Made by a program: the position numbers and the translations under genes. A DNA stretch of 64,000 nt, taken from Eledone cirrhosa. Taxonomy: Eukaryota. A model generated the notes under the pieces. That model ran no database searches. It saw only the letters and a list, made by a program, of their open reading frames with translations, and was not told the DNA's origin. Below are positions 11,951 to 63,233 of this stretch, piece by piece; the first letter of the stretch is position 1; each line of letters opens with the position of its first letter. The stretch covers positions 35,836,001 through 35,900,000 of the forward strand of contig OZ024753.1 of the NCBI GenBank assembly GCA_964016885.1, written 5' to 3'.

Positions 11951-12036
11951 TCATTTTCATCATTTCATTTTACGTCCGCTTTTCCCTGCTTGCAAGGGTG
12001 GGACGGGAACTGATTCTGGCTTGATTTCTACAGCTG
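11948..12036 (-). mobile_element. SINE family A, 3' fragment
   Basis: Matches 722-800 reversed; sits head-to-head with the LINE across a short (TA)n. Confidence 0.8.
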
Positions 12037-12049
12037 CATATATATATAT

Positions 12050-14672
12050 ATGCTAGCCGGAGACTTCAATGGTCATGTTGGACAGCTCCAGGATGGTTAC
12101 ACTGGGGTACATGGTGGGCACGGTTACGGTTCAAGAAATGAAGAAGGAGTGAGACTTCTTGAATTTTGTGATGCAGGTACATTGACTATTTGCAACACAA
12201 ACTTCCAGAAACCTGCCAATCACCTAATAACCTACAAATCTGGTGAGCACATAAGCCAGATTGACTTCTTACTAGTTAGGCAGCGGGACAGGCAGATAGT
12301 GTCTAATACCAAGGCATACCCTGGGGAAGAATGTACCCCACAGCATAGGTTAGTTGTTAGTGATATCTCAGTAAGCAAGAGATGGAATGAGACATATAGG
12401 AAGGTGTGGAGAAGAAAGGTCTGGAAGCTAAAAGACCTTTTACTCAAATACAAATTTAGGAAAGCCCTTCAAGATGTATATGACGAAAAATAAGACGATT
12501 TAGAGACGTATGACATAGATAATAACTGGAATTTCTTACGTGACAACTTGCTGCAGGCTACTGATGAAACTTGTGGCTGGAGCAGAGCTCCAACCAGACA
12601 GAGAGTGACCTGGTGGTGGAACAGCACAGTAGATAAGGCTATTAGAGACAAAAGACTAGCATGGAAGGCTTGGAAAAAGGGTGGGAGTAGGGAAGAATAT
12701 ACAGCCATTAAGAGAGAAGCTAGGCGTCAGGTGTACTTAGCACGCAGGGAGGCAGAGAGTAGGAGGTTTGCCAATGTTCTGCGACGGGAAGATCAGAGGC
12801 GTGCGGTGTTCCACATTGCAAGGCAGTGTGTCAATGCAAATCAGGATGTTGTTGGAGATAAATGTGTCCGGGATGATGCTGGTGTACTTAGTGTCACGAA
12901 TGATCAGAAAAAGGAGGCCTGGAAATGTCATTATGAGAGACTGATGAATGTGGAGAACAAATGGGAGAGAGAGAAATTACCCTTGGTAGATCCGACAGAG
13001 GGACCAGCTATTGAGATTGACGAATATAGGGTCCAAGAGGCGATTAGGGAAATGAAAAATGGTAAGGCTGCCGGACCATCGGGAATAGTTGCTGAGATGC
13101 TGAAGGCATCAGGGGACGTAGGCACTAAACTGGTTGCACGCATCATCAATCAGGCTATATATGGTGGTGTCATACCCAAAGAATGGTGCAGCAGAATTCT
13201 CATAAATTGCTACAAAGGTAAAGGGGATGCTTTGGAGAGGAGCAATTATAGGGGTATAAAACTGATAGATCAACTAATTAGAGAAAGGGTCAAACTAGAT
13301 GAGATGCAGTTTGGTTTTGTGCCTGGGAAGAGTACAACAGATGCCCTCTTCTTGGTGAGATAATTGCAAGAGAGGTTCTTAGAGAAGAATAAGCCACTAT
13401 ACTTAGCCTTTGTTGACCTAGAGAAGGCCTTTGATAGGGCACCCCGATCTGTCATCTGGTGGTCCCTAAGGAAGCTAAGTGTTGAGGAATGGCTTGTGAG
13501 GACAGTGCAAACTTTGTACAGAGGTTCTCTCAGTAAAGTCAGGGTAGGAATGGAGTTTAGTGAGGAATTCCAGATACAAGTAGGAGTACATCAAGGTTCG
13601 GTCCTCAGCCCGCTCTTGTTCATTATAGTCCTCCAAACCATAACAGAGGAGTTTAAGACTGGCTGTCCATGGGAACTTCTCTATGCTAACGATCTGGTTC
13701 TTATAGCAGAATCAGTAGAGGAGCTAGAGAATAAATTCTGGCTATGGAAACAGCAGTTGGAAGCAAGAGGACTGAGAGTGAATCTAGCTAAGACAAAAGT
13801 GTTGATGAGTAGAAAAGAGGACAAAACCCTGATTCCGTCAGGGAAATGGCCATGTTCGATATGCAGAAAAGGAACTGGCATCAATTCTATAAAATGCACA
13901 CAATGCAGATCCTGGGTACACAAGAGATGTAGCGGGATAGCAGGCACACTAACAGGTAGGGAGAAATATGTATGCAGTAGATGTACAGGGAAATTAGACA
14001 GTAGAAGTCGCATTGATAGACACATTTTTCAAATGCAGGAGGGCGCTATAGAAGTGGTGGATAGCTTCCGGTACCTAGGAGATCAGATTAGCATGGGAGG
14101 AGGGTGTTCCGAGGCCATAGTATCTAGAATAAGGACAGGTTGGAAGAAGTTTAGGGAGCTGCTTCCTCTGTTGACGAAGAAGGGTTTCTGCCTGCGTACG
14201 AAAGGCCGGTTGTATGATGCCTGTGTGAGGAGCGCGATGCTGCATGGTAGTGAGACATGGGCAGCAACTGCAGAGGATATGCGACGGCTGGAGAGAAATG
14301 AGGCAAGCATGCTCCGTTGGATGTGCAGTGTAAATGTGCGTGAACGACCCAGCATAAATGTGTTGAGAGAGAAACTGTGTCTGAGAGGGATAGAATGTAG
14401 TGTGCGGGAGAGGCGACTGAGGTGGTATGGACATGTGATGCGCATGGAGGATGACCGATGGGTGAAGAAGTGCCAGGAATTGCCAGTTGAAGGAAGACGT
14501 GGTAGAGGTAGCCCACGAAAAACATGGGCGGAGGTGGTGAGAACAGACCTCAGATCATTGAAGCTCATGGTGGAGATGACGAGGGACCGTGACGAGTGGA
14601 GAGATGCTGTGCTGAATAAGACCCGTCCCACCCTTGCAAGCAGGGAAAAGCGGACGTAAAATGATGATGATG
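12050..14672 (+). mobile_element. RTE-clade LINE family 1, 5'-truncated, inactive (APE C-terminus + RT)
   Basis: GDFNGHVG...SQIDFLL (AP endonuclease), QFGFVPGKSTTDA, FVDLEKAFD, GVHQGSVLSP, LLYAND (YADD mutated), FRYLG, RRLRWYGHV. In-frame stops at 12491 and 13361; (TGA)n tail; (TA)n flanks. Confidence 0.95.
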
Positions 14673-15331: not shown

Positions 15332-16125
15332 ATATATATCTCTATATATATATATCTATATCTATATATATATATATGCTATATGCACATACGATAGTTT
15401 CACGTTTAAAATGTGAGCTGAAAAACTTCAATTAATTAAGTTTGTCTTTGTAATTTAAAGACAAGATCTTTATATATACTTACATAGAGACACACATACC
15501 TACAGACATACCGACATACATACAGATATACATACTTACATACATACATATATACATACGTACATAATACAGATATACACACCTACAGACAGGCAGATAC
15601 ACACCTACAGAATTAGAGATTTGAAAGCTTAAACATACAATTTATTTTATTTTTCCTTCAATTTCAATCATATTGATCATCTTAATTAACAAGTTACATG
15701 TTGATAAATTTATAAAATACTTAAATACCCCTTAATATCAAAAGTATTGATAGATACTAACTAAACTACATATGATAATCATAGTGAGAGATTAGTTCCT
15801 CCTTGCCCCTCTCTCCCTCCTTGTTGCTACTCCCACTTCACCCCAGCCAAACCCCTTCATTAGTGACAAATTAAACAGCTGTTTGATGTGACACTAATTG
15901 GAGAAAAAAAGAGCATCATAGCTGTTTAATGAACAATGAATGCCATTACTGAATGTTAAGAGAAACAGCATCGGTTTAAGTAGCATTCCAATTATGGTGT
16001 CAACAACATACTTAACAACTGCTTTTTATTACAACAGCATAATATCTGAGGGCAGTGAGACAGAATCGGGAGAGCATTGGATAGGATACTTTACTATATT
16101 GCACCTAAAGCTATTAACAAAAGGA

Positions 16126-16385
16126 TGGTAGCCCAATGGTAGTTTTGATAGAACTATTAGTAAAAACATGGTAGCCTAATGGTAGTTTTGATAGAACTAT
16201 TAGTAAAAACATGGTAGCCCAATGGTAGTTTTGATAGAACTATTAGTAAAAACATGGTAGCCCAATGGTAGTTTTGATAGAACTATTAGTAAAAACATGG
16301 TAGCCCAATGGTAGTTTTGATAGAACTATTTGTAAAAACATGGTAGCCCAATGGTAGTTTTGATAGAACTATTAGTAAAAACATA
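16126..16385. repeat. 43-bp minisatellite, ~6 copies
   Basis: Unit tggtagcccaatggtagttttgatagaactattagtaaaaaca. Confidence 0.95.
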
Positions 16386-16586
16386 GTAATACTATCTACT
16401 AGTCGCAAATCCAGGCAGAAGGAGCAACATGAAATAAAGTGTCTTGCTTCACGATTGTGAATCCAATTCTCTAACCACTGAGCAAGATCAACAACAGTAA
16501 GAAAACAACAAAGAGAGAACAGAGTTTTATGAATGTCATTAGTTAACACTTGAATGAGAAAAGAAAAAGTGAAATAAGTGCTGACA

Positions 16587-24830: not shown

Positions 24831-24873
24831 GTCTATATTCCGCCATCAAACGTCTCAAGGCAGATCCTGCCAT
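24831..24873 (-). CDS. UBE2G2: Ubiquitin-conjugating enzyme E2 G2, first coding exon (43 nt)
   Basis: Minus strand reads ATG GCA GGA TCT GCC TTG AGA CGT TTG ATG GCG GAA TAT AGA C|gtaagt = MAGSALRRLMAEYR, matching the UBE2G2/Ubc7 N-terminus (human MAGTALKRLMAEYKQ). Perfect donor site. No further homologous exon recognised in the window. Confidence 0.9.
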
Positions 24874-25150
24874 CTTTGGCCTTTTATCAAATTTGTTTTT
24901 TCTTTTCAAAATTTCATTCCTTGTTTAACCAGTCAATGTGTTAGTCTAAATATTAACCTACCTATCTGTGACAAGAGCACGGACATAAACGTGACACCGC
25001 CATTACAAATAGGAAGTACTGCCGTAGTTACGTGCTATTACCGAGCTGGTGATTGGTTAGATAGTAAGTGTGTTTAAATTACTGGCCAACCAGCGTTGAG
25101 GTTATAGAACGCAGCCACAACGGCGCATTAGCTGTGTAATCGAAGAGCCG
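24874..25150. promoter_or_regulatory. Putative bidirectional promoter between UBE2G2 and TOP2
   Basis: Repeat-free, CpG-enriched stretch with CCGCCATT (YY1-like, 24997-25004), AGGAAGT (ETS-like, 25011-25017) and inverted CCAAT (25052-25056), between divergent start codons. Confidence 0.6.
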
Positions 25151-26372
25151 GTGATTTAGTGTCTTCATCACTGGAAAGACGTATGAGCAGAGTTCTAAAT
25201 AATCTACTCTGTTTTCTTACATTTAATACAACGGAAAAGGCAATATCAAGAGGGAAAACTAAAAAAAAGAAAAGAAAAAGAATATATTTCCCTCGTTTTA
25301 TTTTAACGCGAAAACTTTAATCAATTGCACCGGTTTTTGAACATTCGAAAACCCTAAACTTCCCAAAAGGACGTATCGATGGCCGGAGACGGCTATTATA
25401 GAAATCTGTTTAATTTTTCAACCACCAATTACCTATTTTGGGAAGAAATTTGGTTCCCCAGTTCAAGCAAAAAGAAGTCTGGAGTAGCGGTTGTATTTTG
25501 TGAATAAGAAAGGAAGACGGAGGACGACTATATTGTCGTGGAAGAAGAACCCTAATTTAGTTTTAAGATATCTTCATCTCCACACACACGGAAAAAAAAT
25601 ATATATTAATCACTCATTCGTTCGTTTCACCGGAAAAATATATATCTTCACAAAGGATTTTTAAAAAAAACTGACAATTTAAAAAAAAAAATAATAATAA
25701 TCTCATTATTTACAATTTATTTTTCGATTGTTTCATAATTTATTTTCATTTTTGATTTTCACGATTGATTTCATAAAGATTTTCTGGAGATTAAAAAAAA
25801 GAAGAAAGTATTTACTGGGGAGATCTGAGATCTACATATATAAGATCTATCTCGCTCTTTCTCTCTATATAAAATCTATCTCTCTCTATATATATATATG
25901 CATCATTCGACTTCATGTTTTAGCAGCTTTCTTTCTTGTTTAGTGTAACAAAATAAAAAAAAAACGCCAAAAAAAAAAGAAATAATAAACATAAAACGAA
26001 ACAAAAAAAGAAGAAACTTCAATGTGAGCGAAACGGAACTTGGTGGTGTTAGTAACATGTTTTTGTAAACATAATAGAGACAAAGCTATATATCTAGTTT
26101 TATTGACGATCTACAGTCGATTGAAGCATATAAACAAACATAAGAGTGTATGAAGTAGGTTTTATCAAGCAAACCAATATAACCTCTTTTACATATAAGG
26201 AAGATAACCAAATCTTTTTTCTACTTATTATCATTCTCCTACTATCATCGTTCTCTCACACGCACTTGAGATTATTTTTAATTCCTCCATCTGAAATTTA
26301 CACATTCGAGGTGCTTTTAAAAGCACGGATCTACCCACAGAAGAATTTATTATCTAGTTGAGATATTATAGA

Positions 26373-26399
26373 ATGGCCAATGACGATGTTAAATGGGAG
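26373..26399 (+). CDS. TOP2: TOP2 candidate first coding exon 1b (MANDDVKWE), TOP2B-like
   Basis: ATG GCC AAT GAC GAT GTT AAA TGG GAG|gtaaga. Phase 0, joins 53728 in frame to give KWE-ALFNN (cf. human TOP2B LTWV-TLFDQNN). Confidence 0.7.
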
Positions 26400-26569
26400 G
26401 TAAGAAGCTATTATTTACAAAAAAAAAACCCCAACACAGAAAAAAAAAGAAAAAAATTTTTTTTTATCCATTTCCTACTCATTGTTTGTCAATTCCTTTC
26501 CTTTCTGTTCTGATTTTTTTGTGACAACCCATAATGTAAAACAACCCATGTGATGAGTGTTGGATGCTG

Positions 26570-26645
26570 CGATTGGCTGCTTTCGGCGCGTGACCTCCAC
26601 CTGACGTTTTCATTGGTCAGTAACGGCGCGCTGAATTTAAACCCC
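26570..26645 (+). promoter_or_regulatory. Cell-cycle-type internal promoter (NF-Y x2, E2F-like, MYB, CDE/CHR)
   Basis: ATTGG 26572-76 and 26612-16; TTTCGGCGCG 26581-90; TAACGG 26621-26; GGCGCGC + 4 nt + TTTAAA 26625-41; about 125 nt upstream of the exon 1a ATG. Confidence 0.7.
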
Positions 26646-26766
26646 ACTAATTTCACCGATTGCGCTAGCCCCCCCCCACCTCCTTTCATGTTTATCGTTA
26701 TTCATTTTATTGAAGTAGAAGAAGAAAGTGTAATTCATCGACTTCGAGTTTATTTAAACCCAAACT

Positions 26767-26787
26767 ATGCCTAGTTCTCCGTTAAAG
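26767..26787 (+). CDS. TOP2: TOP2 candidate first coding exon 1a (MPSSPLK), TOP2A-like
   Basis: ATG CCT AGT TCT CCG TTA AAG|gtaaat. Seven codons, phase 0, joins 53728 in frame; resembles human TOP2A MEVSPLQ. Confidence 0.72.
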
Positions 26788-27396
26788 GTAAATCCAGTTA
26801 TAATGTTTGTTTTCAGAATATATATATCTTTTTTTCAGAATATTTTCTTGTTTCTCGTTGAAGATTGCTGGAAAACGGTTGATTTGATCGAAGAGATCAA
26901 AAGCTGAGTTCTGGTTATTCAATTTATATTTACAGTTAATAAAACTGTAGTTTAAAAAAGAGATCGTTATAATAAACGTACAATTCCCTAACAGTGAAAT
27001 AATAAATGGTGTATTGTTCGATTGTGATCGAATTAGGTTTACACTCATTAATAAATGGTTAATTGTACTAAAATTATGCGTGCATGAATATAAATACGAC
27101 CACGAAGAAATTTTGGTCTTTTAAATCTCCTAAAGCAACAATAATATTAAAAAAATGGATGATTAAACATATATTTTAAAAAAGTATACAATGTGTATAT
27201 ATTTAACAAGGATAGTGTTGTTCGATCCACTAGCAGTGACTCCAGATATTTTTTACTTAAGACGATGAAACAACAAATCTGGTATTTAAACCACGAATAA
27301 TCTATATTCGATCATACAGGACTTATCTTTGTTAAATATATTTATTTTGTATTTAAAATAAATTATTAAATATGTATATTTATATTTATAAATATA

Positions 27397-28760: not shown

Positions 28761-29186
28761 ATATATATTTATATATGTACATGTGTATATATATACACAC
28801 ACACACATGTACACAGACCACTACTATCACTACCACGATTATATATGCCTGGACAATGTGAGTCTACATTATTCTGTGTGATTTAAAAAAAGAGAAGACA
28901 TATCTGAATGAGGGCGTGGGGAAGAATCCGGACGAGACTCCTTCAGTTACAATACAAAAGAAGAAAAGCCTTTTGTTAAAACATTTATTTTCCTCAGAAC
29001 ATCTTTCGAGCAAAAATGTGATGTGTATTCAATAAAAGCATTAGCATAGCACTCTATTACTGTCTATAATTGTATCTTTGGTTTATCTAAATGTTCAGAT
29101 AATCGTTAGACAATGTTTGTTTTAAGATAAAACAAATTTTAATGTTTTCTTTAATTAGGGCACCTCTGTCCCACAGTGATTTGAGG

Positions 29187-29545
29187 GAATTTAGCTGCAA
29201 TTTGTAGCAGGTCGATTGATCACATAAAGGGGCCCCTTGTAAATGAGTGAATTTAGCTGCTATTTTAAGCAAGTCGATTGATCACCTAAAGACCCCCTTG
29301 TACATGAGTGAATTTAGCTGCTCTTTTAAGCAGATCGATTGATCACTTAAAGACCCCCTTGTAAATGAGTGAATTTAGCTGCTACTTTTAGCAGGTCGAT
29401 TGATCACATAAAGGCCCCCTTGTAAATGAGTGAATTTAGCTGCTACTTTTAGCAGGTCGATTGATCACATAAAGGCCCCCTTGTAAATGAGTGAATTTAG
29501 CTGTTATTTTAGGGAGGTCGAGCGATCGCATTAAAGCCCCTCCCC
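29187..29545. repeat. 61-bp minisatellite, ~6 copies
   Basis: Unit gaatttagctgctacttttagcaggtcgattgatcacataaaggcccccttgtaaatgagt. Confidence 0.95.
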
Positions 29546-53727: not shown

Positions 53728-53907
53728 GCCCTCTTTAACAATGTTAAAGAGAATGACAAGCAGAAGAAGGCGAGTGGAGATACTGCAGCATCTCACAAGA
53801 CCAACAAGAAATTGACGGTTGAAAGAATCTACCAGAAGAAAAGTCAGTTGGAGCACATTTTGTTGCGACCTGACACATATATTGGATCAGTCGAGCTTCA
53901 CACACAG
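53728..53907 (+). CDS. TOP2: TOP2 exon 2 (180 nt)
   Basis: ttttcag|GCC...CAG|gtgagt; ALFNNVKEND...LTVERIYQKKSQLEHILLRPDTYIGSVELHTQ. Confidence 0.97.
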
Positions 53908-54890: not shown

Positions 54891-54984
54891 CCTATGTGGA
54901 CGATAGACGATGATCTCTCAACAATGGTACAACGAGAAATTTCATTTGTTCCTGGTCTCTATAAAATATTTGATGAAATTCTTG
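54891..54984 (+). CDS. TOP2: TOP2 exon 3 (94 nt)
   Basis: cttcag|CCT...CTTG|gtaagt; PMWTIDDDLSTMVQREISFVPGLYKIFDEIL. Confidence 0.97.
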
Positions 54985-56069: not shown

Positions 56070-56133
56070 TCAACGCAGCAGACAACAAACAGAGAGATGT
56101 TAAGATGAACACCATTAAAATAGATATTGATCC
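56070..56133 (+). CDS. TOP2: TOP2 exon 4 (64 nt)
   Basis: tttag|TC...CC|gtatgt; VNAADNKQRDVKMNTIKIDIDP (GHKL N-box). Confidence 0.97.
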
Positions 56134-57370: not shown

Positions 57371-57516
57371 TGAAAACAACCGGATTAAAATTTGGAACAA
57401 TGGTAGAGGAATCCCTGTTGTTGAACACAAGACTGAAAAAATGTATGTACCAACCATGATCTTTGGACATCTCTTGACATCCAGCAACTATGATGACACA
57501 GAGAAGAAAGTCACAG
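57371..57516 (+). CDS. TOP2: TOP2 exon 5 (146 nt)
   Basis: tttcag|T...ACAG|gtttgt; ENNRIKIWNNGRGIPVVEHKTEKMYVPTMIFGHLLTSSNYDDTEKKVT. Confidence 0.97.
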
Positions 57517-58107: not shown

Positions 58108-58205
58108 GTGGTCGTAATGGATATGGTGCTAAGCTTTGTAACATCTTCAGCACAAAATTTGTTGTAGAAACATCAAGCCAAGAATATAAACGTGCATTCA
58201 AACAG
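58108..58205 (+). CDS. TOP2: TOP2 exon 6 (98 nt)
   Basis: tttcag|GT...CAG|gtaatg; GGRNGYGAKLCNIFSTKFVVETSSQEYKRAFKQ (ATP-binding loop). Confidence 0.97.
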
Positions 58206-59033: not shown

Positions 59034-59246
59034 ATATGGACAGGTAACATGATGAATGCTTCTGACCCAATTATAACTGAGTCTCGAGCAGAAGACTTCA
59101 CTGCTATAACATTTTCTCCGGATCTGCCGAAATTTAGCTTGCAATCTTTAGACAAAGACCACGTGTCGTTATTCTATCGACGAGCGTTTGATATTGCTGC
59201 TTCAACCAGAGGTGTTCGAGTTATTTTGAATGGCAAAAAAGTTCCG
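59034..59246 (+). CDS. TOP2: TOP2 exon 7 (213 nt)
   Basis: tcatag|ATA...CCG|gtaagt; IWTGNMMNASDP...FTAITFSPDLPKF...RRAFDIAASTRGVRVILNGKKVP. Confidence 0.97.
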
Positions 59247-59622: not shown

Positions 59623-60056
59623 AAATAATTCTTTTGATAACAAACTACCGAGAATAATTCTTTTGATAACAAACTACCGAGAATAATTCTTTTGATAACA
59701 AACTACCGAGAATAATTCTTTTGATAACAAACTACCGAGAATAAATCTTTTGATAACAAACTACCGAGAATAATTCTTTTGATAACAAACTACCGAGAAT
59801 AAATCTTTTGATAACAAACTACCGAGAATAAATCTTTTGATAACAAACTACCTAGAATAAATCTTTTGATAACAAACTACCTAGAATAATTCTTTTGATA
59901 ACAAACTACCGAGAATAAATCTTTTGATAACAAACTACCTAGAATAATTCTTTTGATAACAAACTACCTAGAATAATTCTTTTGATAACAAACTACCTAG
60001 AATAAATCTTTTGATAACAAACTACCTAGAATAAATCTTTTGATAACAAACTACCT
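59623..60056. repeat. 29-bp minisatellite, ~15 copies
   Basis: Unit gaataa(t/a)tcttttgataacaaactacc(g/t)a. Confidence 0.97.
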
Positions 60057-60683: not shown

Positions 60684-60857
60684 GTGAAAAATTTCAAAGA
60701 TTATGTGGATTTGTACATCAAAGAAAAAGTTGATGATGCTGGCCAACCGTTGAAAGTGATGTATGAACAAGTTAGTGACAGGTGGGAGATAGCTGTTACC
60801 ATTAGTGACAGTGGTTTCCAGCAAGCCAGTTTTGTCAATGGCATTGCAACAACTAAG
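60684..60857 (+). CDS. TOP2: TOP2 exon 8 (174 nt)
   Basis: ttgcag|GTG...AAG|gtaaag; VKNFKDYVDLYIK...RWEIAVTISDSGFQQASFVNGIATTK. Confidence 0.97.
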
Positions 60858-60898
60858 GTAAAGTAATGCAAAAGTTCGACTTAATTCATAGTAGTAGT

Positions 60899-61975
60899 TG
60901 TGGTGGCTTACACATGTATCACTGAATATACTATCAAGTAATGACTGGAACCACATGTTTTGTGTGGCTCACACATGTATCACTGAATATACTATCAGGT
61001 AATGACTGGCGCCACATGTTTTGTGTGGCTTACACATGTATCACTGAATATACTATCAGGTAATGACTGGCTCCACATGTTTTGTGTGGCTCACACATGT
61101 ATCACTGAATATACTATCAGGTAATGACTGGCACCACATGTTTTGTGTGGCTTACACATGTATCACTGAATATACTATCAAGTAATGACTGGCACCACAT
61201 GATTTGTGTGGCTTACACATGTATCACTGAATATACTATCAGGTAATGACTGGCGCCACATGTTTTGTGTGGCTTACACATGTATCACTGAATATACTAT
61301 CAGGTAATGACTGGCACCACATGTTTTGTGTGGCTCCACATGTTATATCACTGAATATACTATCAGATCATGACTGGCACCACATGTTTTGTGTGGCTCC
61401 ACATGTTATATCACTGAATATACTATCAGGTAATGACTGGCACCACATGTTTTGTGTGGCTCCACATGTTTTGTGTGGCTCCACATGTTATATCACTGAA
61501 TATACTATCAGATAATGACTGGCTCCACATGTTATATCACTGAATATACTATCAGATAATGACTGGCACCACATGTTTTGTGTGGCTCACACATGTATCA
61601 CTGAATATACTATCAGATCATGACTGGCACCACATGTTTTGTGTGGCTCACACATGTATCACTGAATATACTATCAGATCATGACTGGCACCACATGTTT
61701 TGTGTGGCTCACACATGTATCACTGAATATACTATCAGATCATGACTGGCACCACATGTTTTGTGTGGCTCACACATGTTATATCACTGAATATACTATC
61801 AGATCATGACTGGCACCACATGTTTTGTGTGGCTCACACATGTTATATCACTGAATATACTATCAGATCATGACTGGCACCACATGTTTTGTGTGGCTTA
61901 CACACGTTATATCACTGAATATACTATCAGATAATGTGTGGCTCACACATGTTATATCACTGAATATACTATCAA
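60899..61975. repeat. 61-63-bp minisatellite, ~17 copies
   Basis: Unit tgtgtggcttacacatgtatcactgaatatactatcaggtaatgactggcaccacatgttt with variants. Confidence 0.97.
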
Positions 61976-62317: not shown

Positions 62318-62419
62318 GGAGGTCGTCATATAGACCATGTTTCAGATCCTTTGCTGAATAAAATAATTGAAATCATCAAGAGAAAAAACAAAGGTGGTTT
62401 GAACATCAAACCATTTCAG
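62318..62419 (+). CDS. TOP2: TOP2 exon 9 (102 nt)
   Basis: ttgtag|GGA...CAG|gtaagt; GGRHIDHVSDPLLNKIIEIIKRKNKGGLNIKPFQ. Confidence 0.97.
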
Positions 62420-63095: not shown

Positions 63096-63233
63096 ATAAA
63101 AAGTCACATGTGGTTATTTGTAAATTGTCTAATTGAAAACCCGACTTTTGATTCCCAAACTAAAGAAAATATGACACTGCAACCAAAATCATTTGGTTCG
63201 AAATGTCAACCCAGCGAGAAATTTATTACTGCC
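63096..63233 (+). CDS. TOP2: TOP2 exon 10 (138 nt)
   Basis: ttctag|ATA...GCC|gtgagt; IKSHMWLFVNCLIENPTFDSQTKENMTLQPKSFGSKCQPSEKFITA (QTK loop). Confidence 0.97.

Follow-up and report, generated by a model that had tools for sequence, protein, structure and literature searches.

One octopus TOP2 gene with two candidate first exons that resemble the starts of vertebrate TOP2B and TOP2A

Vertebrates carry two TOP2 genes, TOP2A and TOP2B. In human cells it is the C-terminal regions that decide alpha- versus beta-specific function, while swaps of the N-terminal stretches (alpha 1-27, beta 1-43) left every isoform-specific function as it was, according to the accessible part of PMC1920234, where the reason that vertebrates keep two TOP2 genes is called enigmatic. 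TOP2B is described as a vertebrate-specific duplicate of TOP2A in the available text of PMC6163646, which also has the human TOP2B promoter using NF-Y. The human TOP2A promoter contains several inverted CCAAT boxes (excerpt of PMC6896119), and a CHR lies near the TOP2A start (excerpt of PMC4176359). In Drosophila and yeast a single TOP2 gene serves dividing and non-dividing cells, and single-isoform TOP2 genes may not be proliferation-dependent, as suggested in the part of the review PMC6896119 that we cite. A human TOP2B splice variant has five residues inserted after Val23 (accessible part of PMC9592559). Outside this enzyme family, the pea aphid follistatin genes are described, in the portion of PMC11874257 available, as duplicates of a multi-promoter ancestor that keep one promoter each.

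Here we describe a TOP2 locus of the octopus Eledone cirrhosa, part of which lies in the 64-kb stretch of DNA that was analysed (the window). Its exon 2 has no start codon of its own ahead of the conserved core, and two short ATG-started exons lie ~27 kb 5' of it. We refer to a start that ends in Lys-Trp-Glu in this gene as W-type, and to one that ends here in Pro-Leu-Lys as P-type. The exons in the window are as follows.

26373-26399, + strand: coding end of first exon 1a, W-type; 9 codons, phase-0 donor gtaaga
26767-26787, + strand: coding end of first exon 1b, P-type; 7 codons, phase-0 donor gtaaat
53728-53907, + strand: common exon 2; 180 bases, phase 0-0, acceptor ttttcag
54891-54984, + strand: TOP2 exon 3, ATPase domain
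56070-56133, + strand: TOP2 exon 4, ATPase domain
57371-57516, + strand: TOP2 exon 5, ATPase domain
58108-58205, + strand: TOP2 exon 6, ATPase domain
59034-59246, + strand: TOP2 exon 7, ATPase domain
60684-60857, + strand: TOP2 exon 8, ATPase domain
62318-62419, + strand: TOP2 exon 9, ATPase domain
63096-63233, + strand: TOP2 exon 10, ATPase domain

The octopus gene resembles the vertebrate pair in enzyme family, in the position of the TOP2B exon 1-2 junction and in its two starts, W-type as in TOP2B and P-type as in TOP2A; inverted CCAAT boxes and a CHR-like element recall the TOP2A promoter as the cited excerpts describe it. It differs in being one gene with one C-terminal region, whereas the vertebrate genes are two and, in the text of PMC1920234 at hand, differ through their C-terminal regions. 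The human TOP2B variant concerns this very junction and the residues that open exon 2, but, as far as its source extends here, it alters where exon 2 starts while the first exon stays the same, whereas the octopus would change the first exon and the promoter. Where the Drosophila and yeast genes may lack proliferation dependence, the octopus gene seems to include a distinct promoter of cell-cycle type. The aphid follistatin genes, on the evidence of the portion cited, offer a parallel for promoter partition between duplicates (subfunctionalisation), but the TOP2 case would be far older, tagged by conserved coding micro-exons and repeated in two lineages, and it concerns a core cell-cycle enzyme and drug target. 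A literature search, with most subscription journals outside its scope and judged by titles and the opening lines of abstracts, found no report of a two-first-exon TOP2 arrangement in one gene, which is apparently unreported.

We found that the gene matches Argonauta TOP2 exon by exon over residues 9-1586, extends ~30 kb beyond the window end and matches PF00521 (the breakage-reunion family) above cut-off; the Argonauta protein in turn matches the human TOP2A and TOP2B chains. By sequence, then, it is a eukaryotic type IIA topoisomerase, with ATPase, TOPRIM and breakage-reunion domains in one gene. Within the window, exons 2-10 join in frame without a stop into 403 aa with 91% identity to Octopus bimaculoides TOP2. 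That the gene is single-copy, as the first-pass annotation had supposed, held up: exon 2 and exon 5 have one match each in the whole 3.0-billion-base genome, and PF00521 occurs at this gene and in one 405-base intron-less, frameshifted piece. The latter (G000:C22:21633388-21633818, L003) joins three exons of the gene, to which its DNA is 90-95% identical, and it reads as a processed TOP2 pseudogene fragment. A second intact TOP2 gene in the genome is ruled out by these same searches, and we take octopus TOP2 to be a single-copy co-orthologue of TOP2A and TOP2B. The window also contains a broken retrotransposon with reverse transcriptase and PHD-finger matches (12014-14659) and four minisatellites, at 59624-60055 (29-base unit), 60898-61953 (61), 29182-29540 (61) and 16111-16388 (43), three of which lie inside TOP2 introns.

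The first-pass annotation had claimed that exon 2 lacks an ATG and needs an upstream phase-0 exon, and that two ATG-started first exons with strong donors are present to supply it. Both statements proved accurate: exon 2 starts at 53728 in phase 0 after ttttcag, and the coordinates, peptides and donors of the two micro-exons are all as claimed, with GTAA donors that resemble those of the internal exons. Such micro-exons are frequent by chance (88 ATG..GTRA candidates in 20001-53727, and 940 ATG..GT candidates in window positions 1-53727), so the sequence alone is little proof of exons 1a and 1b; they are set apart from chance candidates because they are conserved in relatives. When the 940 candidates were scored with a profile of 33 non-cephalopod P-type ends, 26767-26787 ranked first at 14.6 bits, the runner-up reaching 2.3. 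A W-type profile, built from 29 non-cephalopod ends, placed 26373-26399 joint second with 6.6, below a top score of 8.6. The identification of exon 1a accordingly rests not on its profile rank but on the Argonauta TOP2 start, which is joined to exon 2 and with which the exon 1a peptide agrees at 8 of 9 residues. In Octopus bimaculoides TOP2, it is the P-type peptide that is joined to exon 2. An in-frame 5' extension of exon 1b is ruled out by a stop at 26755, and a CDK site (Ser/Thr-Pro) was rejected as the conserved feature of the P exon, being found in only 6 of 33 cases.

Three sequencing runs of one sample (X1-X3) each gave one continuous contig over 25000-27400, which supports the assembly across both exons; they differ from it by two substitutions and one absent base near 26670. 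A fourth run of unknown kind (X4) gave a deep piece at 25126-25849 and a shallow one at 26806-27310, and its share of the words of 26100-26800 (0.41, with ~0.40 expected if it ended at the exon 1a donor) is not counted as evidence. Reasoning from the junctions of its relatives, we consider it very likely that both junctions (26399>53728 and 26787>53728) are used in the octopus.

Motifs upstream of the two exons hint at how each might be controlled. The features concerned are these.

26572-26641, + strand: cell-cycle-type promoter cluster before exon 1b, recognised from sequence motifs
26572 and 26612, + strand: inverted CCAAT boxes of the exon 1b cluster
26581, + strand: E2F-like site TTTCGGCGC of the exon 1b cluster
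26625-26631, + strand: GC-rich element, followed by a 4-base spacer and a CHR-like TTTAAA at 26636
24840-25130, + strand: candidate upstream promoter of the W-type exon, a low-confidence call from motifs

The cluster before exon 1b lies 125-195 bases 5' of the P-type ATG and is the sole such 120-base cluster in the window. Simulations of the region gave the full motif set in 3 of 20000 cases and the CCAAT plus GGCGCG part in 242 of 20000, for motifs that had been picked after being seen. TTTAAA, of which the window has 84, is one of the three commonest CHR forms, and a four-base spacing defines CDE/CHR tandems, as stated in the accessible part of PMC4176359. With a CHR-like element, a GC-rich element four bases upstream of it and CCAAT boxes further up, the stretch before exon 1b has the putative layout of a DREAM/MuvB-type promoter. 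The candidate promoter of the W-type exon contains two CCGCCAT (2 of the 3 in the window), which we take to be YY1-like, one GGAAGT, presumably ETS-like, one inverted CCAAT box, and one TTTAAA and one GGCGC that stand outside CDE/CHR spacing. Counting against a special role of the exon 1b cluster are the frequency of TTTAAA in the window, the CCAAT box and TTTAAA that also occur near 25050-25125, upstream of exon 1a, and the use of NF-Y by the human TOP2B promoter as well. Seven ATG triplets precede the W-type start in 25126-26372; if this were all 5' leader, translation of the exon 1a form may be damped. Judging from the motifs and from which paralogue kept which exon, we regard it as likely that the cell cycle drives the P promoter and that the W promoter runs at a steady level; the proliferative versus constitutive or neuronal use that the first-pass annotation had assigned to the two exons is thus a motif-based prediction.

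If the two starts are old, they should be recognizable in other animals. N-termini were compared among cluster members for 30 of the proteins found, using public gene models. Among the mollusc species with at least two records, 14 of 22 have W and P starts on isoforms of the same gene and the other eight have one type; the isoforms of a pair share exon 2 and are identical across the next 1000-1100 residues. Such pairs occur in two abalones, Gigantopelta, Pomacea, Littorina, three mussels and three scallops, Potamilus has both starts under one locus tag, and Ruditapes and Mya (2 of the 14 species) have both with Ser replacing Trp in the W-type. In the amphioxus Branchiostoma lanceolatum, W and P starts are likewise found in one gene, on isoforms identical over 1100 residues. 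The two first-exon types that had been expected in other lineages thus do occur there, as same-gene isoform pairs in molluscs and amphioxus, and such isoforms already stand, unremarked, in public annotations.

The distribution is uneven. Of 68 named species or gene entries, 15 have both types, 25 P only, 17 W only and 11 neither. Single records give the P-type in an annelid, a nemertean, hemichordates, echinoderms, Daphnia and horseshoe crabs, and the W-type in an annelid and a brachiopod; four oyster species are P-type only, and neither peptide type is found in the insects and scorpion among the records, nor in most arthropods, two patterns that count against our preferred reading. No species has both forms among the cephalopod protein records, which show the P-type only in O. 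bimaculoides and the W-type only in Argonauta, Sepia and squid-like records. Because same-gene pairs occur in both molluscs and amphioxus, we infer that the pair is at least as old as the protostome-deuterostome ancestor, with later losses. Among the same records, horseshoe crabs have two TOP2 paralogues ~83% identical (P0114/P0117 and P0264/P0358), one P-type and the other neither. Four bivalve records, P0353, P0305, P0347 and P0324 (Mya, Ylistrum, Mizuhopecten, Magallana), carry Arg-rich, acid-poor N-terminal extensions, in frame ahead of the P exon or, in two oysters, in a first exon of their own; these look like putative mitochondrial targeting sequences.

The W exon had been proposed to match exon 1 of TOP2B, and the vertebrate records bear this out. 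Sixty of 74 TOP2B-type records are W-type and none is P-type, the other 14 having truncated or other starts, and in TOP2B a Trp-Val is followed by Thr-Leu-Phe-Asp, as in amphioxus and molluscs. The insertion after Val23, so far as its source describes it, places the TOP2B exon junction at the same point as the invertebrate one, so the splice point is shared as well. The companion claim, that TOP2A mirrors the P exon, stands in part. Two TOP2A-type sequences were compared, human TOP2A and P0412, a 94-residue record with a vertebrate-type core and a P-type start near those of Daphnia and abalone. P0412 aligns through human TOP2A residues 4-19 (Ser-Pro-Leu-Gln versus Gly-Pro-Leu-Lys), not through the TOP2B start, and by way of it the P-type start can be aligned with human TOP2A residues 4-12; a profile made from the P-type starts of invertebrates, however, gave no alignment to human TOP2A residues 1-19. 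The human protein, whose exon 1 has 7 codons, has drifted, with Gln instead of Lys at the exon end and the Leu-Phe after it missing.

The best core matches of P0412 (~60 residues) are TOP2B records from a comparison set that contained no TOP2A, so the assignment depends on the start, a short linker and two or three residues. An Atlas search with P0412 gave no usable paralogue label, and the representative search returned mostly genomic exon-2 fragments, 1 of its 49 matches being a vertebrate-type P start. The further claim that the vertebrate paralogues arose by partition of two ancestral first exons is favoured by amphioxus, a pre-duplication outgroup with both starts in one gene, and by the W start of TOP2B, and is weaker for TOP2A with its two sequences. 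Taken together, it is quite likely that each vertebrate gene retained a single ancestral start, the W exon in TOP2B and the P exon in TOP2A. Cyclostomes have two paralogues of their own that cluster apart from those of jawed vertebrates (excerpt of PMC10081982), which would make them a third case for comparison. Two observations on TOP2B may be added. Axolotl isoform X2 (P0028) has a four-residue start exon ending Ser-Pro before TOP2B exon 2, which could be the vestige of a second start or an error of annotation. In many spiny-rayed fish records (P0214-P0262) the Trp is kept but the Thr-Leu-Phe next to it is missing, so some TOP2B forms would do without the W junction motif.

Sea urchins offer a second duplication. 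In Lytechinus variegatus there are two TOP2 genes that share 80.5% identity; in the one record read for each, the first gene starts P-type and the second W-type (two other members per cluster could hold the second exon). We built trees from the core, with the first-exon peptide removed, on 50 rows and on 17 rows, neither with a TOP2A row. The W-type sea-urchin gene grouped with other echinoid genes in the 50-row tree and, with a support of 99, in the 17-row tree, and a clade uniting it with vertebrate TOP2B was rejected (p-AU 1.3e-7, 17 rows). The sea-urchin duplication thus appears to be a second split, independent of the vertebrate one.

The C-terminal regions differ along the same lines. 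Single-gene deuterostomes and the P-type sea-urchin gene carry a Gln-Ser/Thr-Thr-Leu motif immediately after the core, which in the sea-urchin gene aligns with KKQTTL of human TOP2A; this type of motif is missing from human TOP2B, the W-type sea-urchin gene and molluscs. We take the TOP2A motif in the KKQTTL region to be one that was proposed to bind PCNA. A second motif, Gln-Pro-Ser-Ile, which we likewise take to resemble a PCNA-binding box, stands 120-185 residues ahead of the C-terminus in amphioxus, hemichordates, Lingula, Owenia and the P-type gene of the sea urchin but is not found in the W-type one; its strict pattern occurs in none of 59 full-length TOP2B-type records, which gave two unrelated-looking loose matches. 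In molluscs this motif sits in an optional exon of 34-61 residues, which the octopus also has:

G000:C13:35926488-35926607 (L012:6488-6607), past the window end: optional C-terminal exon, 120 bases, phase 1-1

The octopus exon begins with Gln-Pro-Ser-Ile and is missing from the Argonauta record, and the same exon makes the difference between long and short isoforms in the 14 mollusc pairs compared. Coupling between this cassette and first-exon type was not shown by the mollusc records (16 of 26 P, 25 of 66 W, p 0.06, records not independent). As queries, the octopus cassette and the sea-urchin tail had no match among solved structures.

We next weighed other explanations of these observations. 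One exon might be used in Eledone cirrhosa and the other be a relic, as the single type per species in cephalopod protein records would suggest; yet exons 1a and 1b are both undamaged and followed by good donors, and each type precedes exon 2 in another octopod (P in O. bimaculoides, W in Argonauta), which leaves this idea barely credible. It is also very unlikely, in our view, that the likeness to vertebrates reflects convergence or chance, with both vertebrate first exons derived from one ancestral exon. Peptides of 7 to 14 residues invite such coincidences, and a drifted human TOP2A that the invertebrate profile misses, in a sample of two, lends the idea some room. But both types stand at one and the same junction in amphioxus, the nearest outgroup with a single gene among those compared, TOP2B retains the residues on both sides of it, and P0412 carries the invertebrate P-type start almost unchanged. 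Somewhat less remote, though still improbable, is that exon choice makes or removes a docking motif at the junction, Lys/Arg-x-Leu-Phe (cyclin-docking) for P and Trp-x-x-Leu-Phe for W, so that the products differ. Of 34 P-type starts 26 match a strict cyclin-docking consensus, against 3 of 32 W-type ones, both motifs have persisted since the bilaterian ancestor, and in human TOP2B the N-terminal strap reduces ATP hydrolysis. The octopus P junction, however, meets the loose consensus only and human TOP2A is without it; fewer than 15% of strict-consensus peptides bound a cyclin, in the available part of PMC12356897; the human N-terminal swaps were without effect, as far as the text of PMC1920234 at hand goes; and five residues added at the TOP2B junction left Km and Vmax unchanged. 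Fold predictions of one P-type and one W-type relative gave the N-terminal peptide a confidence below 50 with a short junction helix, and a Mytilus start peptide used as query had no match among solved structures.

The most serious competitor, which we nevertheless think unlikely, accepts that the starts are ancient and were partitioned but holds that animals with one gene use them in different tissues or stages, such as germ line or maternal against somatic, and not according to the cell cycle. The cell-cycle motifs have been seen in one genome, and some lie upstream of exon 1a too. Against this, the CDE-spacer-CHR tandem, the two CCAAT boxes and the E2F-like site come together before exon 1b only, and the P exon is found in TOP2A and in the sea-urchin copy that shares the TOP2A C-terminal motif. 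The first-pass annotation had called the two products alpha-like and beta-like. One gene with two conserved first exons does stand behind these names, but the octopus 1a and 1b products share the enzyme core and, except for the optional cassette, the C-terminal region, and together with the human swap results this means that they probably differ in control rather than in how the enzyme behaves. Their resemblance to alpha and beta would then probably be one of regulation and not of enzymology. The W and P peptides are still under selection.

The reading that we prefer, and consider probable, is that octopus TOP2 has two promoters, that these are an ancestral bilaterian pair, and that the pair was later divided between paralogues at least twice. 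One TOP2 gene would have two promoters, each with a short coding first exon spliced across ~27 kb to the common exon 2. Most likely, the downstream promoter (P exon) would be switched by NF-Y, E2F and DREAM/MuvB to give a pulse of enzyme in dividing cells, and the upstream promoter (W exon) would provide a steady supply in non-dividing cells. After duplication in vertebrates, TOP2B would have retained the W exon and TOP2A the P exon, and in sea urchins two paralogues would have split the starts independently. C-terminal differences would have come afterwards, with the W-type copies of both lineages losing a motif that human TOP2A kept. The peptides themselves would mainly mark the promoters, and may also tune the N-terminal strap.

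A broader version of this, to which we lean more narrowly, is that the split between proliferative and non-proliferative enzyme predates vertebrates: one bilaterian gene would have had a cell-cycle and a steady promoter, each with its own micro-exon, fixed alike in vertebrates and sea urchins, the W copy then losing a replication-linked C-terminal motif and molluscs varying an optional exon. The finding would imply that the regulatory split came before the gene duplication, and it makes of the W and P peptides sequence tags with which the split could be traced in any bilaterian transcriptome. It raises the questions of whether repeated duplications resolve alike, and in which order promoter and C-terminal change arose in two enzymes that are drug targets. 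It also asks whether a TOP2B-like start is used in non-dividing invertebrate cells, for instance in the large cephalopod nervous system.
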